From assembly GCF_003019035.1 (NCBI RefSeq), contig NZ_CP027447.1: a DNA stretch of 64,000 nucleotides; one strand, given 5' to 3'. The notes beneath the pieces are model-generated. The model was not told where the DNA came from, searched no databases, and saw only the letters and a program-made list of their open reading frames with translations. The stretch is from Escherichia coli. GTDB taxonomy: Bacteria > Pseudomonadota > Gammaproteobacteria > Enterobacterales > Enterobacteriaceae. A program made the translations under genes and the position numbers. Positions 9,916 to 54,300 of the stretch are shown piece after piece. The first letter of the stretch is position 1, and each line of letters begins with the position of its first letter.

Positions 9916-11066
9916 TTTTTCTTCTCCTTAATCACCGTCGATGTACTGCCATCCGGGTGATAAACCGTGAGTTTCTGAGTTTTTTGTTTTTTCCCTCTTG
10001 TGACTGGCCCCCGTGCCACTTCCAGCTCTGTGGTGTAGCCGCTGTTACGCTCAAACGCATGGCGGGCAGTGGTTATGAGCCATGGCCCGGATAACTGCCC
10101 AAAGCCCACCAGTTCAATTTTGTTGCCTGCTGTCAGTTGAGGCGTTCCCGTCAGCGTCAGGGAGCCGTTCTGCTGGTATTCGTTATGTCTGGCCAGTGCT
10201 GAATCCGCTTTAATCCGGGCACTGTCCGGGTCGCTGACGCGACTGTTAACTTTAAGTGAGTCAGCGCTGGTAACCTTACCACCTTTGAGCTTTTTGTCGC
10301 TTTCACGGGTACCACCATCAGCTTCGTAGACGATCAGTTTTTTACTGCTGCTTTTCTGGTGTTTTACCTTTGCAGATTTATAGACCCGGTTGATGGTGTC
10401 ACGCAGGGAAAAGCGGGCCACATCCTGCGGTTTTAACTGCCTGACCGGCTCCTGACTGCGCAGTGTGGCCAGATGAGAAAAAATCAGCTGGTCACTGACC
10501 ACTTTCACTGCATAACCATACTCGCTGGCCAGCCGGCGCAGAAAACCCACGTCGGTTTCAGCATACTGGGTCACCCGGTCGATTCTGATGGACTCAATGC
10601 TGCCCACCAGTTTCAGCCGGTGCTTTCTGGCAATCCGCCCCGCAACAGCTGCCAGCGTGGTGTTCTCAAAACCACGGCTGGATTTAGTCCGCAGAGCACT
10701 GTTAACCGAGGTGGCCACCCCACGGATAGCGACAACGGACGCGGGCGAACTCACTTCGATCTCGTCTATTGAGAATGTACCGCAGGACAGCAGTTTCTCG
10801 CCCTGATAACCCATTTTCAGCGTCAGCGTGTCACCCTTGCCCGGATACCACTTATCCAGCCAGCGGCCATCGGTGTCGTCCAGCTCCACCTCAATGGTAT
10901 CGGACTCATTTTTGATGTTATCGCTCCAGACCACACGGGTGACATAAGGCGCGATATCAGAGGTGATGTTTTTCTGCAGATACCACAGAGTGAATACCGG
11001 CGTCAGCACATCGCTGACGCCGGTTAACGCTGATGTGGCTTGCGCAGTACTGTTTATCTCAGCCAT
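9912..11066 (-). CDS. Baseplate hub protein (P2 gpD / Mu gp44-like)
   Basis: 384 aa, size and position of late control D / Mu P. Confidence 0.6.
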   Translation of the reverse strand: MAEINSTAQATSALTGVSDVLTPVFTLWYLQKNITSDIAPYVTRVVWSDNIKNESDTIEVELDDTDGRWLDKWYPGKGDTLTLKMGYQGEKLLSCGTFSIDEIEVSSPASVVAIRGVATSVNSALRTKSSRGFENTTLAAVAGRIARKHRLKLVGSIESIRIDRVTQYAETDVGFLRRLASEYGYAVKVVSDQLIFSHLATLRSQEPVRQLKPQDVARFSLRDTINRVYKSAKVKHQKSSSKKLIVYEADGGTRESDKKLKGGKVTSADSLKVNSRVSDPDSARIKADSALARHNEYQQNGSLTLTGTPQLTAGNKIELVGFGQLSGPWLITTARHAFERNSGYTTELEVARGPVTRGKKQKTQKLTVYHPDGSTSTVIKEKKK

Positions 11067-21039: not shown

Positions 21040-21253
21040 TTTGCTGTCCCGCGTTATGTTGTCGGAGACAGTTTGTGAGAAATGCAGGCCCGGCGATTTT
21101 AATCTGCTTTAGAAAACATCAGGGGAGAAGGACAGGGAAAGCAATGCGGTGAACCGGAAGCGGTTATAAAACAGAGGCTGTAAAGCCTTTATAAAGGTAA
21201 TACAGCCCCTCATTCGCTGGCAATGATAAATCACCCGCCTGAAGAGAGAAAAC

Positions 21254-27164: not shown

Positions 27165-27882
27165 AGCTGCCGCCCCCCCATGTCAGATAACGGGGGGCCA
27201 GTTCGTGCAGGATGCGCTGCGGATAATGGCGGTTCTCCCGCCAGCTGGCAGCATTGCGTCCGGCATTCACCGTGGCGACATGCCCGAACCAGCGGGTACT
27301 GTCCAGGCCTTTCTGTGATGCTAGCTGCCTGTCCCGTTGTACCCAGCCCAGACCACCGTTATAGCCCGACAGTGTCATGGCCATACGTTCGCAGTCACTG
27401 GCGGCGCTGACGCGCTGCCACAGCCAGCGGTCATAGCTGACCAGCGCCCGGATGGCCCATGCCGGATTAAACGGCTCACGGCTGTTAAGCCCCGGCATCA
27501 GCTGACTTATCCAGTCAGCAGTGGCGGGCATGAACTGCGCCAGTCCCTGAGCGCCAGCCGGCGAGACCGCATCAGGTCGCCAGCCGCTTTCCTGATGCAG
27601 TTGCGCAGCGAAATCGGCCACCGGCGCAGACAGTCCCCATTCAAGCCGGGCATTACGGATCACATCATCGCGATACTGCAGCGCAGCCTGCGGAGGCTGC
27701 GCTGCGCGGGCCTGACTGAAGAAGCCGCCACACCAGAGCAGCCAGACAATCACCAGGTTGCCAGCAAGCTGCCACCAGAAGCTGTATTTATCGTTACGTG
27801 GTTCTCCGTGTCTGATGGCGGTTACGCCCAGACCAAAGGCGAACAGAATAATGAGGGTGATTTGAGGCCAGTTCATGGTCAC
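27154..27882 (-). CDS. Endolysin, SLT-type lytic transglycosylase with N-terminal signal-anchor
   Basis: 242 aa; hydrophobic N-terminus followed by ...LHQESGWRPDAVSPAGAQGLAQFMPATADW... Confidence 0.8.
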   Translation of the reverse strand: MTMNWPQITLIILFAFGLGVTAIRHGEPRNDKYSFWWQLAGNLVIVWLLWCGGFFSQARAAQPPQAALQYRDDVIRNARLEWGLSAPVADFAAQLHQESGWRPDAVSPAGAQGLAQFMPATADWISQLMPGLNSREPFNPAWAIRALVSYDRWLWQRVSAASDCERMAMTLSGYNGGLGWVQRDRQLASQKGLDSTRWFGHVATVNAGRNAASWRENRHYPQRILHELAPRYLTWGGGSCVD

Positions 27883-28229
27883 AGTCCTGTTGCCACAGCC
27901 AGACAGACCGCTGCAACAATCAGTGCACGGCGGATTAACGCAGCAGAAAATACAAGGTGAAGGCCGGTCTGCACAGGGAAACGCCCTTCAGCCATCAGCC
28001 TGTCTTCATGTTTCAGGTACTGACCGGGACGGGCTTTGGGGAAGAGTGAACGGTCAAGCCAGTAACCCAGCACTGCTGCCAGCGTGATGAGTGCCAGCTT
28101 GTAGATCACAACAGGCAGCTGCTGTGGCGAGACCAGAGCGATGGTGCCCAGCAACAGCACTGAGGTCAGCAGCCAGCCGCTGAGGCGAGGTTTTTTAACA
28201 GGGGGAATGAATTTTTTCAGGTTTTTCAT
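27879..28229 (-). CDS. Putative holin (3 TM segments)
   Basis: ATG at 28227-28229 preceded by AAGGAG (MKNLKKFIPP...); three hydrophobic helices; first gene of the lysis cassette. The track ORF begins at an upstream GTG. Confidence 0.5.
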   Translation of the reverse strand: MKNLKKFIPPVKKPRLSGWLLTSVLLLGTIALVSPQQLPVVIYKLALITLAAVLGYWLDRSLFPKARPGQYLKHEDRLMAEGRFPVQTGLHLVFSAALIRRALIVAAVCLAVATGL

Positions 28230-28359
28230 GTGTGTCTCCTTGTCTGGTGGAGACAGCATCACAAATACAGGGCGCGAAGGATTTTAAAGCGCGTTAAGAG
28301 AGCCGGGGATACGGGATGTGCAGGATAAACGATGAATTATTCACAGAGGAGAATACGAT

Positions 28360-28785
28360 ATGACGCAGACACTGAATCCGGTCATCACTGTCACCGTGTC
28401 CGGTCCTGTGGGCAGCGGTAAAAGTTACGTACTGGCGCGGATAGAAGAGATGGTGAAACAGGAACCCGGAAACAGCGTCATTGTCGATGCTGCTGACGTG
28501 GAGAATGAGCGCCGTATGAGTGGGGATGATCTGAGCACATGGCAGAAACCACAGGCAGGTACAATTATCCGACTGGAAGAATACACTGAGCGGGTAACTC
28601 TATCATATAGTGAGGAGCGCATTTGCCTGACGAATGCACTGCTGGAAGTTATATGTCCCGAAGGCAAGAGCCCCTGGATACTACCCGATGCTGTACATGC
28701 CGCAATTGCTGCATTGTTCGTATTATACGATCAGGAGCTGGTTTTAATGGAGTTATGTAAGGTTATTAAAGCTACAGAAAAGTAA
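28360..28785 (+). CDS. Hypothetical small P-loop protein (Walker A GPVGSGKS), orphan accessory gene
   Basis: 141-aa ORF with GAGGAG RBS; Walker A at residues 15-22; divergent from the late operon; no family recognised. Confidence 0.6.
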   Translation: MTQTLNPVITVTVSGPVGSGKSYVLARIEEMVKQEPGNSVIVDAADVENERRMSGDDLSTWQKPQAGTIIRLEEYTERVTLSYSEERICLTNALLEVICPEGKSPWILPDAVHAAIAALFVLYDQELVLMELCKVIKATEK

Positions 28786-28860
28786 AAATATTATCGGTAT
28801 CCTGTGGATGATAAAAACACGCTACCCACAGGATTACTTGTATAAAACCGTGGATAACAA

Positions 28861-29382
28861 CTAGATAAAACCATCATAGAAGTCATCCCTCTTACGAGAC
28901 CTGATACGAACTGGATTTGGCTCTCCTTTCAACCATACAGCACTGTTTTGACCACAAACCGGACACATGCAAAAACTGTCTTTTCGTATATGCAGGATAC
29001 TTTTCAGGTTTTTGGAATCAAAACAAGTCTGGCAAATATAATGTTCAGTTTCATCGTTTCCCGTATAACGATAAGCATAGAAGCCTTTTTCTTCACTCAG
29101 TAACGTCAGTTTATAATTACCGCGAAAGTTAAGAAGGTCTTCCAGAGAGCGAATTTTCTCTTCCAGATTGGTAATGGTTTTTTGCTGTTCTCCTAGCTTG
29201 CTCGTTACCTCAAAGAACTGCCCCTGTGCTTCAATAATTTTACTCTGTAATTCACTGGTCAAAGCGGCCTGTTTTATTTGATCACGCTCTTTTATTATTT
29301 TCTGAGCAGTACTGCTGATATAGCCAAGAGCTGTTAATAAAGCGTTTGTATCCATAGCACCCCGATATCCTCTAAACCACAT
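28861..29382 (-). CDS. Hypothetical coiled-coil protein with C-terminal zinc-ribbon (CxxC...CxCxxC), orphan accessory gene
   Basis: 173 aa (or 164 aa from the second ATG at 29355); heptad-like N-terminal half; C-terminal YICQTC...CMCPVCG; visibly AT-rich DNA. Confidence 0.55.
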   Translation of the reverse strand: MWFRGYRGAMDTNALLTALGYISSTAQKIIKERDQIKQAALTSELQSKIIEAQGQFFEVTSKLGEQQKTITNLEEKIRSLEDLLNFRGNYKLTLLSEEKGFYAYRYTGNDETEHYICQTCFDSKNLKSILHIRKDSFCMCPVCGQNSAVWLKGEPNPVRIRSRKRDDFYDGFI

Positions 29383-29422
29383 TAACAGAAATCACTTCAT
29401 CCCTGCCGCATCATGAAAGAAC

Positions 29423-29454
29423 GACCAGCCCGGCACCCGAAAGCCGGGCTGGTC
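29423..29454. other. Perfect 12-bp GC-rich stem-loop in the divergent intergenic region
   Basis: GACCAGCCCGGC-acccgaaa-GCCGGGCTGGTC between the 173-aa gene start and the methyltransferase gene. Confidence 0.5.
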
Positions 29455-29557
29455 ATCGTCCCACAGGAATGCACTGTGAGCCGACCGAGGTTCAGTCAGT
29501 CTCGCGAGACCAGACTAGCCTGCCATATTTTTAATAATTGTAAAAGGCTTACAGATT

Positions 29558-30322
29558 ATGAAAATGCAGTCATTACCCATCGTTCCATGGATTGGTGGCA
29601 AACGCCGCCTTGCAAAACACATTCTGCCGCTGTTTCCGGCGCATGAATGTTATGTGGAGCCGTTTTGTGGGGCAGCAGCGCTCTATTTTCTTAAGACACC
29701 CGGCAAGATCGAAGTCATTAATGATATCAACGGTGAACTGGTGAATCTGTACCGGGTGGTAAAGCATCACCTGGAAGAATTTGTCCACCAGTTCAAATGG
29801 GCGCTGGTCAGCCGTCAGATCTACAAGTGGCTGCAGATCACCCCGGAAGAAACACTGACGGATATCCAGCGTGCAGCACGGTTCTACTACCTCCAGAAGC
29901 AGGCGTTTGGCGGCAAGGTAGCAGAACACAGCTTCGGTACCTCCACCACATCCCCGCCACGCTTCAACCTGCTGCGTATTGAAGAAGAACTGTCAGCGGC
30001 ACACCTGCGACTTTCCAGAACAGTCATAGAACACATGGACTGGCAACAGTGCATTGAGCGCTATGATCGTCCGCACACGCTGTTCTACTGTGATCCGCCG
30101 TATCTGGGTACGGAAGGCTATGGTGTGGATTTTCCTGAAGGGAACTACTCGCGGCTGGCAGAGCTGGCCCGGTGCATCAGAGGAAAAATGATAATTTCGG
30201 TGAACGACATCCCGCAGATGCGCGAGGTGTTCACTGGACTGAACATACAGACAGTGAATATCAACTACAGTCTGGCGGGGAAACCCACGCCGCGCCGTGA
30301 ACTGATAATCTGCAACTTCTGA
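29558..30322 (+). CDS. DNA adenine methyltransferase, Dam-like
   Basis: 254 aa with the N-terminal AdoMet-binding region (FCGAAALYF) and the catalytic DPPY motif (YCDPPYLG). Confidence 0.85.
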   Translation: MKMQSLPIVPWIGGKRRLAKHILPLFPAHECYVEPFCGAAALYFLKTPGKIEVINDINGELVNLYRVVKHHLEEFVHQFKWALVSRQIYKWLQITPEETLTDIQRAARFYYLQKQAFGGKVAEHSFGTSTTSPPRFNLLRIEEELSAAHLRLSRTVIEHMDWQQCIERYDRPHTLFYCDPPYLGTEGYGVDFPEGNYSRLAELARCIRGKMIISVNDIPQMREVFTGLNIQTVNINYSLAGKPTPRRELIICNF

Positions 30323-30329
30323 AACAGAA

Positions 30330-30352
30330 CCGGAAAGCACAATGCTTTCCGG
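30330..30352. terminator. Hairpin between the convergent methyltransferase and repressor genes
   Basis: CCGGAAAGCA-caa-TGCTTTCCGG, 10-bp perfect stem, 8 bp after the methyltransferase stop. Confidence 0.45.
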
Positions 30353-30438
30353 TAAATCAGCCCATTCCTGCCATGCTACTGACGGCGCTTTCTGAAAGCG
30401 TCCAGATCAACCACCTGTCCTTTGTGTCCGGGTCAGAA

Positions 30439-30816
30439 TCAGCCTGTAAATTTACTTGGTTTGGGTTGAGTATAGAATCGCCCAACCTCAAGAAATGAGC
30501 GTCGTTGTTCCGGAGTCATTTCATCAAATGCGTCCATTAATTTTTGTTTTTCTGGTGACATTTTTGGGACAACATTGGTCATTACATCCCCTCTCTGTCC
30601 TGTAACAACGTAAAGCACGTCAAGCCCTAAAGTAGCCCAAATTGCCAAAGCATCTGCTCCGGGAGCGGATTCATCCTTTTCCCACCGCAATTGGCTTTTA
30701 TAGGATGCCCCCACCAATTCAGCAAACTCAGACTGACTAAATCCTAGGCGGTTTCGTTCTTCTTTTAATCGTGAGCCAAGTGACATTTTTGTCCAATACC
30801 TATTTACATGTCCCAT
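30439..30816 (-). CDS. Phage repressor, XRE-family HTH
   Basis: 125 aa with HTH LGFSQSEFAELVGASYKSQLRWEKDE; divergent from the early operon. Confidence 0.7.
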   Translation of the reverse strand: MGHVNRYWTKMSLGSRLKEERNRLGFSQSEFAELVGASYKSQLRWEKDESAPGADALAIWATLGLDVLYVVTGQRGDVMTNVVPKMSPEKQKLMDAFDEMTPEQRRSFLEVGRFYTQPKPSKFTG

Positions 30817-38351: not shown

Positions 38352-38793
38352 ACAACGTCTTATCCAGCTCATTCATATTGCCCGTAATGAACTGGGTATG
38401 GATGAAGACACCTACCGCCAGATGTTACAGGGGCTGACCGGTAAAGCCTCAACCAAAGGAATGGATACCACACAACTAAACTGCGTGCTGGAATCCATGA
38501 AAAGGAAAGGCTTTCGCGTTAAGCCTGCCGGAAAAGCCAGCTCCGGTTTACCGCTGGATAACCATCCGCAGTCCAGGAAAATCCGTGCGCTATGGCTTGA
38601 AATGGCTGCTGCCGGCATTGTTCGTGACCGTTCAGAAAATGCATTAGCGCGGTGGATCAAGCGGGAAACGGGCATCAGCGCCCTGCGCTGGCTCAATACT
38701 GAACAGGCAAGCAGTGTTATTGAGAAACTGAAGAAGTGGCAGCACAGAGCTGCGGGAGTAAAACATGAGCGACCTGAATCAGTTTCGAAGTAA
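38341..38793 (+). CDS. GemA/gp16-like protein
   Basis: MMTKQRLIQLIHIARNELGMDEDTYRQMLQGLTGKAS... matches the GemA family pattern. Confidence 0.6.
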   Translation: MMTKQRLIQLIHIARNELGMDEDTYRQMLQGLTGKASTKGMDTTQLNCVLESMKRKGFRVKPAGKASSGLPLDNHPQSRKIRALWLEMAAAGIVRDRSENALARWIKRETGISALRWLNTEQASSVIEKLKKWQHRAAGVKHERPESVSK

Positions 38794-39163
38794 AGGGCCG
38801 GAACTCCTGGTGGAGCTGGCACAGCATACCTCTGAGACCGTTCGCGAGATTATTGATATTGAGCCCGCAATTGCCGACCAGATTGGTCAGGCCGTCGCGA
38901 ACCGAATGATGCAGGTCTGGGGCGGGCAAAACGTTTATTTCCCGATGGGCATGGTATGGAAGGTCAGTCAGCGCGACCGGGAAATCTTCAGGGAGTTTAA
39001 CGGACGCAACCACCACGAACTGGCCCGCAAGTTTGGTGTTTCGCTTCAGTGGGTCTACAGCGTGGTTAAGCGGGTCAGAAAAGAAGAACTGGATCGGATG
39101 CAGGGCAGGTTGTTTGATGAAGATCTGCCAGAGGAGACGAAAGACGTTAACAAATCCAGATAA
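38765..39163 (+). CDS. Mor/C-family transcription activator
   Basis: C-terminal GGQNVYFPMG...RDREIFREFNGRNHHELARKFGVSLQWVYSVVKR matches the Mor/C pattern (GGxxVYIPxG...FNGRN..EL...YGV...VY). Confidence 0.7.
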   Translation: MSDLNQFRSKGPELLVELAQHTSETVREIIDIEPAIADQIGQAVANRMMQVWGGQNVYFPMGMVWKVSQRDREIFREFNGRNHHELARKFGVSLQWVYSVVKRVRKEELDRMQGRLFDEDLPEETKDVNKSR

Positions 39164-39205: not shown

Positions 39206-39240
39206 AAAAGCACGGTAGACCCCTTACCGTGCTTTTTTTA
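39206..39240 (+). terminator. Rho-independent terminator after the Mor-like gene
   Basis: GCACGGTA-gacccct-TACCGTGC followed by a run of seven T. Confidence 0.7.
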
Positions 39241-40911: not shown

Positions 40912-40939
40912 GCGTGTGGTCAGGTTACTGACCACACGC
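40912..40939. terminator. Hairpin shared by convergent slyB and slyA
   Basis: GCGTGTGGTCAG-gtta-CTGACCACACGC, 12-bp perfect stem. Confidence 0.5.
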
Positions 40940-54270: not shown

Positions 54271-54300
54271 ACTGACGGATGCCCGTTCGCATCCGTCAGT
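54271..54300. terminator. Hairpin between convergent lhr and grxD
   Basis: ACTGACGGATGC-ccgttc-GCATCCGTCAGT, 12-bp stem; T-rich on the grxD side. Confidence 0.6.

Follow-up and report, generated by a model that had tools for sequence, protein, structure and literature searches.

In bacteriophage lambda, the late leader transcribed from PR′ is antiterminated by Q, and the short 6S RNA is ended by the terminator tR′ located before an operon whose first genes are those of lysis; in HK022, the put sites are cis-acting antiterminator RNAs. Here, we describe an element that resembles parts of both systems, a perfect 12-bp hairpin at positions 29423–29454 of a 64,000-nucleotide stretch of Escherichia coli DNA (contig NZ_CP027447.1; this whole stretch is referred to below as the window). 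The hairpin belongs to a BcepMu-like transposable (Mu-like) prophage and had been pointed out in an earlier note on this DNA. We propose that it probably acts on the minus strand as an intrinsic terminator, of the Rho-independent type, and ends leftward transcription before the putative late/lysis promoter of the prophage.

As in the lambda PR′-6S-tR′ region, a short terminated RNA would precede an operon that starts with lysis genes, followed by head and tail genes; unlike in lambda, the late signature is located downstream of the hairpin, a Mor-family activator is encoded and no Q-like gene is annotated. As at HK022 put, a temperate phage here has two neighbouring conserved stem-loops closely following a promoter-like site; the sites are not known to be similar in sequence, and the stem-loops described here precede an adjoining conserved terminator-like hairpin, not distant ones. 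With phage Mu, the prophage shares its lifestyle, a Mor-family gene that closes the early operon and separate late signatures before lysis and I-like genes. Mor and C bind dyads centred at −43.5 of the Mu promoters that they activate (PMC2582627, PMC4287176), and separate C-dependent promoters, which have −10 hexamers and lack −35 elements, precede Mu lys and I (PMC2582627). In contrast, our hairpin is centred near −83 and appears to be selected as RNA, while a dyad near −41 is found in cassette-free relatives only.

The features shared with intrinsic terminators are a G+C-rich stem-loop and, 3′ of it on the strand presumed to be transcribed, a candidate U-rich tract, conservation that ends at this tract, compensatory changes that keep the structure and, in one lineage, a position just past a stop codon. 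The differences are that the U tract of the window (GUUCUUUCA) is interrupted and invariant in sequence and that most prophages have a conserved noncoding structured stretch, not a coding gene, directly upstream. An Rfam 15 scan of 5 kb and of a 221-nt region (E ≤ 10) returned only sub-threshold chance matches and no family membership. The top match was the Pxr small RNA (RF01812), which also has several hairpins, here on the minus strand, that end in a terminator, and which scored 23.8 bits against a gathering threshold of 80; the next was CC0196 (15.5 against 35). Literature searches on BcepMu late promoters and on small RNAs of Mu-like prophages yielded nothing on the hairpin element, nor any report of RNA 3′ ends or polymerase release at the site. 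As a kind of element, the hairpin is unremarkable; the novelty lies in its setting, which is conserved and unannotated, in a very common prophage family whose regulatory map is itself unannotated. The results flag a candidate structured minus-strand RNA in this region and provide handles for prophage annotation, for the expression of accessory genes in the lysogenic as opposed to the late state, and for the silencing of lysis genes.

Sequence, Distribution and Strand of the Hairpin

The element consists of the following parts.

29423..29454, minus strand: terminator-type RNA hairpin core, GACCAGCCCGGC-UUUCGGGU-GCCGGGCUGGUC on this strand (12 bp, 8-nt loop)
29455..29457, minus strand: 5′ side of a three-pair stem extension, pairing with 29420–29422 as U.G, A-U and G.U
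29414..29422, minus strand: tail GUUCUUUCA, U-rich, adjoining the stem on its 3′ side; the RNA is expected to end here

Read on the plus strand, 29423–29454 is GACCAGCCCGGC-acccgaaa-GCCGGGCTGGTC, with twelve perfect pairs and an 8-nt loop, exactly as the earlier note had given it; its predicted energy is −27.8 kcal/mol. The surroundings, described there as otherwise AT-rich, are so only mildly: the G+C content of 29383–29557 is 51%, or 45.5% with the hairpin left out, compared to 53% for the window. The 64-kb window contains six inverted repeats that pair perfectly over 12 bp or more (loops of 3–10 nt), versus a mean of 0.05 in 60 dinucleotide-preserving shuffles, i.e., perfect 12-bp hairpins are about 100 times more common in the window than in shuffled DNA. 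The hairpin is therefore not due to chance; it is one of six, and the other five resemble terminators or gene-internal hairpins.

A 218-nt query around the hairpin matched 555 of 5426 complete E. coli genomes (about 10%). Carriers of the prophage include ST131-type clinical strains as well as Klebsiella, Citrobacter, Pantoea, Erwinia, Mixta and others. As an independent probe, we used an exact 22-mer located 35 nt to the right of the hairpin, so that recovery of loci did not depend on the hairpin itself. The probe retrieved 11 loci from one-genome-per-species contigs (from Pantoea, Trabulsiella, Citrobacter, Mixta, Buttiauxella, Intestinirhabdus, Erwinia and Limnobaculum) and 49 IMG/VR contigs. 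When these were pooled with annotated loci, 72 elements comprising 50 distinct 262-nt sequences were obtained. The earlier note had asked whether related prophages share the hairpin; it is present in every one of the 72 elements and 50 variants, in one copy per prophage. One locus, from Pantoea stewartii (L012), ends at about 29516, probably due to an insertion sequence at the contig end, and is uninformative. The collinear true-Mu-type prophage Sp18 of E. coli O157:H7 Sakai (L073) has another organisation and lacks the hairpin element, and published O157 small RNA data are therefore not transferable to it.

Changes in the stem point to the strand on which it matters. Across the 50 variants, 555 of 600 stem cells are Watson–Crick pairs. 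In 43 cells, distributed over seven pairs, the plus strand has C.A or A.C, which correspond to U.G or G.U on the minus strand; a single cell is G.U on the plus strand only, and one is paired on neither. Since unselected transitions would give both kinds of single-sided change equally, the ratio of 43 to 1 argues for a minus-strand RNA. Five pairs of the main helix are changed on both sides, and the compensatory changes include GGC/GCC to GGU/ACC or GGUG/CACC, C-G to U-A at two positions and A-U to G-C. When 43 distinct sequences were aligned, minus-strand pairing of the main helix was 98.5%, and the three extension pairs (70-111, 71-110 and 72-109) were paired in all 43; in the divergent loci L084 and L075, the corresponding pairs are G-C, A-U and C-G. 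A three-helix model of the region scored on the same alignment is 97.1% paired when read on the minus strand and 77.6% when read on the plus strand. In 500 column shuffles, neither the pairing nor the covariation score of the real alignment was ever equalled, and pairing fell to 23–48% when the 3′ partners were shifted by 1–3 columns. We conclude with high confidence that the stem is selected as minus-strand RNA. A role as minus-strand single-stranded DNA is formally possible, but a transposing phage has no evident need of it.

The same data bear on the proposal, also made in the earlier note, that the hairpin is a protein-binding palindrome. A double-stranded site bound by a dimeric protein, or a cruciform, would be in line with the perfect dyad in the window and with the fact that Mor/C-type activators bind dyads (PMC2582627, PMC4287176). 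However, the arms co-vary, the loop and the upper stem change freely, and departures from pairing are strand-specific (the 43 to 1 asymmetry), which is not what a double-stranded DNA site would produce; moreover, the centre of the hairpin is at about −83 from the putative late start, versus −43.5 for Mor and C (PMC2582627). There is very little chance that the hairpin acts in this way.

Tail and Putative Termination

The tail GUUCUUUCA is identical in 50 of 50 variants, and conservation falls right after it. Its TransTermHP-style score is −3.01 on the minus strand (a weak value, above the usual cut) versus −2.09 on the plus strand. Divergent homologs were collected by scanning IMG/VR with the late signature described below and searching the new loci with a covariance model built on the 43 sequences. 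L084 and L075 scored 59 and 58 bits, and L138 scored 48 bits. In these three loci, a 13–16-bp stem is kept through several double substitutions, and the extension pairs are Watson–Crick. Their tails, CUCUUUUCC and CUCUUUUUAC (also as GCUCUUUUCC or GCUCUUUUUAC), contain better U tracts, e.g., UCUUUUU, which helps to resolve the ambiguity left by the weak tail of the window.

The clearest placement is seen in L091 and L137, where the hairpin, the tail and 14 nt upstream are the only parts retained (23 bits). In these loci, the hairpin begins 14 nt past the stop codon of a minus-strand gene encoding a lipoprotein-like product of 175 aa; this gene follows two more minus-strand genes of the immunity side, one of them similar to helix-turn-helix (HTH) repressors. 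The earlier statement that the hairpin is not placed as a terminator of any annotated gene thus holds for the window and fails for L091/L137, where the homologous hairpin closely follows a same-strand stop codon.

Several observations weigh against termination at this site. The U tract is broken, with five U in nine positions of GUUCUUUCA and interruptions by C, and a simple terminator scan did not list the 29423–29454 hairpin, probably because the three weak extension pairs use up the first bases of the tract; once these pairs are formed, only CUUUCA is left as a tail. The canonical terminator after the Mor-family gene has a far better tail score (−4.06 compared to −3.01). The exact invariance of the 9-nt tail exceeds what a terminator needs, and the tail may have a second role. 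In the window, no annotated minus-strand gene is located directly upstream of the hairpin, a separate hairpin (30329–30353) already follows the repressor gene, and the −10 hexamer of the candidate promoter from which a dedicated leftward transcript could start, CAGGCT, is weak. Finally, the BcepMu-like Burkholderia phage vB_E433 has no analogous hairpin and gave no match to the covariance model, and the element therefore seems specific to the enterobacterial lineage.

These weaknesses of the tail would also suit an element that does not terminate, i.e., a 3′ protective stem or an RNase III-type processing site located inside a longer transcript that runs leftward. The case for minus-strand RNA applies equally to such an element, the stem reaches 15–16 bp, and the U tract of the main group is poor. 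On the other hand, the U tract is kept and even improved in divergent lineages, conservation stops after the tail, and the position of the L091 hairpin is that of a classical terminator; a stability or processing element is quite improbable. We infer that the hairpin probably terminates transcription. Leftward transcription entering from the right would form the G+C-rich stem of 12–16 bp, and polymerase would be released at GUUCUUUCA (29422 to 29414).

Prophage Setting

The nearest phage records are Escherichia phage PhiKM (genus Bcepmuvirus, 92% identity), Klebsiella phage KP12 and phage Phi06_2974 B. For the gene layout, we relied on a 99.5%-identical prophage of E. coli 12089 that is annotated in RefSeq. 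Tail, head, terminase and lysis genes are transcribed leftward from the minus strand and end, on the side of the hairpin, with the holin gene. To the right of the holin gene follow a variable stretch, the hairpin, dam, the HTH repressor gene and the rightward early operon, which contains the transposase genes and, at its end, the Mor-family activator gene.

27879–28262, minus strand: holin gene
29558–30322, plus strand: dam, D12-class methyltransferase gene; its start codon is about 100 nt from the hairpin
30329–30353, minus strand: 11-bp hairpin between the 3′ ends of the repressor gene and dam, ACCGGAAAGCA-caa-TGCTTTCCGGT with the tail UCUGUUUCAG (tail score −3.25), listed as terminator-like by the simple scan
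30439–30816, minus strand: HTH repressor gene, to the right of dam
38765–39163, end of the rightward early operon: Mor-family activator gene (Pfam E = 1e-43)

In E. coli 8178 (L008, NZ_CP151932), dam is reduced to a decayed remnant of about 100 nt (L008 2646–2745), and the rest of it is replaced by minus-strand genes that run from the repressor towards the hairpin, while the hairpin region is intact. L008 thus provides a natural control with a dead dam. Compared to its nearest intact relative, it differs at one of the 84 nt that flank the hairpin on the right (29455–29538) and at two of the next 19, versus about 12 changes, in addition to indels, over the first 100 nt of what is left of dam. 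The side of the hairpin is thus conserved while dam decays, and this noncoding conservation is therefore independent of dam.

The earlier note had considered a regulatory RNA element in a 5′ UTR. The part of this suggestion concerning selection as RNA is borne out; the RNA is, however, on the minus strand and terminator-like, not an element of the 5′ untranslated region of dam mRNA. A plus-strand element of the latter kind would be suggested by the location of the hairpin about 100 nt upstream of the dam start and by the plus-strand fold (−50.5 kcal/mol, z-score −4.8). Yet single-sided changes create C.A mismatches on the plus strand (43 versus 1), pairing on that strand is 77.6% versus 97.1%, the element is kept where dam is dead or absent, and no conserved plus-strand promoter is found to the left of the hairpin. 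We regard a function in dam mRNA as very improbable.

The chance that the conserved region encodes a small protein is close to nil. A plus-strand open reading frame of 77 aa (29413–29646) is open in the window and has an ATG, GTG or TTG start in many variants. It is interrupted by stops or frameshifts within at most 41 codons in 21 of 50 variants and starts with CTG in two; substitutions are largely nonconservative, and the frame overlaps dam out of frame.

Transcription stopped at the 29423–29454 hairpin by the proposed terminator could have two sources, which do not exclude each other. One would be read-through from immunity-side genes, which is clear in L091 and plausible in L008; in the window, such transcription would have to pass the 30329–30353 hairpin, which is a possible terminator of the repressor transcript and the first barrier to leftward transcription of the repressor gene, and would run antisense through dam. 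The other would be a small unit of its own that is considered below. With either source, the hairpin would insulate the lethal lysis/late operon from transcription that is active in the lysogen, and would mark the boundary of two transcription units, at which variable accessory cassettes insert.

Late Signature and Accessory Cassette

To the left of the hairpin, the window contains the following features.

21064..21102, minus strand: second late signature, upstream of the protease/scaffold (Mu I-like) gene
28249..28302, minus strand: late-gene signature before the holin gene, CTCTTAACGCGCTTTAAAATCC, N, CTGTCTCC, then the Shine–Dalgarno sequence GGAGAC
about 28330..29372, both strands: accessory cassette encoding a P-loop-like protein of 141 aa (plus) and a zinc-ribbon protein of 164/173 aa (minus)
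29373..29390, minus strand: degenerate copy of the putative late-promoter motif, CTGTTAATGTGGTTTA, at the right cassette junction, in a block conserved in all classes; an intact copy is at 28280–28302

TTAAAATC and CTGTCTCC each occur twice in the 64 kb, both times on the minus strand and 23 nt apart, before the holin gene (28249–28287) and the I-like gene (21064–21102). The bipartite signature TTAAAATC-N23-CTGTCTCC is exact in 61 of 73 loci and contains a good −10 hexamer, TAAAAT; we infer that it is a late promoter followed by a leader. The pattern shared by both sites (28225–28302 and 21040–21125, minus strand) is yTAAnGCnnnT-TAAAAT-C, N23, CTGTCTCC, about 10 nt, GGAGAC or GGGACAG, and ATG. 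By base complementarity, a GUCUCC / CUGUCUCC arm could pair with the GGAGAC Shine–Dalgarno sequence, which suggests that translation of late genes may be masked.

In cassette-free loci of the L003/L007 type, the stretch from the hairpin tail to TTAAAATC contains a 6-7-6 dyad, ATGCGG-N7-CCGCAT, with its centre at about −41 from the putative late start, close to the −43.5 of Mu Mor/C sites; cassette-bearing prophages and the second late signature lack this dyad. A shared Mor/C-type site at −43.5 (PMC2582627) was considered and is not claimed, as the dyad occurs in cassette-free prophages only and is not common to the second signature.

The distance between the hairpin tail and the late signature is 44–45 nt in 28 of 62 loci and 0.58–1.46 kb in the rest; it is 1126 nt in the window. 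In loci with long spacers, the gap is filled with unrelated accessory genes on either strand. The cassette genes of the window gave no confident Pfam or PADLOC match. The slot between the putative terminator and the late signature is a hotspot for insertion of variable accessory cassettes, possibly of defence or anti-defence function. The earlier note was right that an acquired cassette adjoins the hairpin. As the zinc-ribbon gene is a member of this variable cassette, the region cannot be regarded as a plain divergent promoter shared by two core genes.

The cassette is flanked by an intact (28287–28302) and a degenerate (29373–29390) copy of CTnTTAAnGnnnTTTA. Since the hairpin is present in cassette-free loci and the junction motif is elsewhere, the hairpin belongs to core DNA and not to the cassette; the true cassette junction is 35–50 nt to the left of the hairpin. 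This speaks against the view that the hairpin is a recombination scar or attachment site marking the junction. Such a view could point to the adjoining cassette and to megablast homology with KP12 and Phi06, which begins about 10 nt to the left of the hairpin. Against it, the hairpin is found at the same spacing in the 28 cassette-free loci, weaker conservation extends about 45 nt further left, and the duplicated CTnTTAAnGnnnTTTA (29373–29390 and 28287–28302) is away from the hairpin; an origin as a scar is highly improbable.

A Candidate Leftward Transcription Unit

Between the hairpin and dam, the following features are found.

29460..29480, minus strand: second hairpin CUCACAG-N7-CUGUGGG, arms invariant, 7-nt loop hypervariable
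29481..29499, minus strand: third hairpin CUGACUGA-ACC-UCGGUCGG with three G.U pairs, less strongly supported
29499..29510: perfect 12-bp palindrome GTCTCGCGAGAC, unique in the window
29517..29544, minus strand: candidate leftward promoter, TTTACA, 16-nt spacer ending in TGG, CAGGCT
29521..29529, plus strand: extended −10-like TGcCATATT, invariant in the alignment, candidate dam promoter

The pattern TTTNCA / 16–17 nt / YAGGCT keeps its position in all sequence groups, divergent ones included, while the spacer (ending in TGG, CGG or AGG) and the 6-nt discriminator vary. The second source of leftward transcription would be this site, TTTNCA-16-YAGGCT, with a start near 29510. From there, an RNA of about 96 nt with two to three stem-loops would possibly be made, comprising a 5′ mini-hairpin (itself only possible), CUGACUGA-ACC-UCGGUCGG, CUCACAG-N7-CUGUGGG and the putative terminator. 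The extended −10-like element of the plus strand overlaps the leftward −10, and the dam and leftward promoters, if real, may compete, as polymerase could not occupy both at the same time. A σ70-type site, TTTTCA-16-TACAAT (29564–29537), was also inspected and rejected: it is good in one sequence class only, and most relatives have TGCAAT.

In the second hairpin, 100% of cells are paired on the minus strand, and a U.G pair becomes U-A in L020; its loop is the most variable stretch of the region. This element could alternatively be a DNA dyad. The third hairpin is lost in divergent homologs, and 91.9% of its cells are paired on the minus strand versus 64.2% on the plus strand. In every group, the palindrome at 29499–29510 begins 7 nt past the candidate −10 hexamer, where +1 is expected. 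L084/L075 and L138 have other palindromes in its place, GTTCTCGAGAAC and GTCGTCGATGAC, respectively, the latter being G.U-compatible on the minus strand only. The palindrome could serve as an operator or form a 5′ mini-hairpin in the leftward RNA. No second copy of the palindrome or of a dyad near the dam start was found in the window, and a k-mer search of the hairpin region against the rest of the window gave nothing above background.

It is conceivable, though less likely than not, that the proposed terminator ends a so far undescribed phage RNA of about 96 nt, made from a promoter that overlaps that of dam back-to-back and conserved in BcepMu-like prophages across Enterobacterales, and that this RNA, or its transcription, acts in the decision between lysogeny and late gene expression. 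If so, its routes of action would be protein binding, promoter competition with dam or cis modification of RNA polymerase. Neither a conserved unpaired seed nor evident complementarity to a target was seen, and the loops are the most variable parts, which argues against a classic base-pairing small RNA.

The order of promoter-like site, stem-loops and terminator-like hairpin also invites a model in which the real late promoter is located to the right of the hairpin, and a leader of about 96 nt ends there unless read-through is permitted; a phage factor or the leader RNA itself would then let polymerase into the cassette, lysis and late genes, in the manner of lambda PR′-6S-tR′ with Q or of HK022 put. 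Such an attenuator or antitermination checkpoint deserves consideration, unlikely as it is. It would account for the lysis genes being first in the downstream operon, for a short structured RNA before a terminator-like hairpin and for the two neighbouring conserved stem-loops that closely follow a conserved promoter-like site; a regulated terminator would also be in keeping with the U tract, which is weak and interrupted by C. It is at odds with the separate late signature (TAAAAT), which is always next to the holin gene, recurs before the I-like gene and is downstream of the hairpin, and with the opposite-strand cassette genes that are tolerated between the hairpin and the holin gene. A Mor-family activator is present, and the RefSeq annotation of the near-identical prophage contains no Q-like product, a remote Q homolog not having been searched for by profile. 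In addition, the L091 hairpin follows a coding gene and not a leader. As a candidate antiterminator, an upstream CUGGUC that could pair with the 5′ arm was examined; the upstream copy is variable, and this pairing was rejected.

Other Hairpins of the Window

A canonical terminator is located just after the Mor-family gene.

39206–39236: canonical terminator, AAAAGCACGGTA-N7-TACCGTGCTTTT followed by TTTAT (tail score −4.06)

Four further perfect 12-bp hairpins are at 27678–27705, inside the transglycosylase gene and without a U tract on either side, and at 10996–11024, 40912–40939 and 54271–54300.

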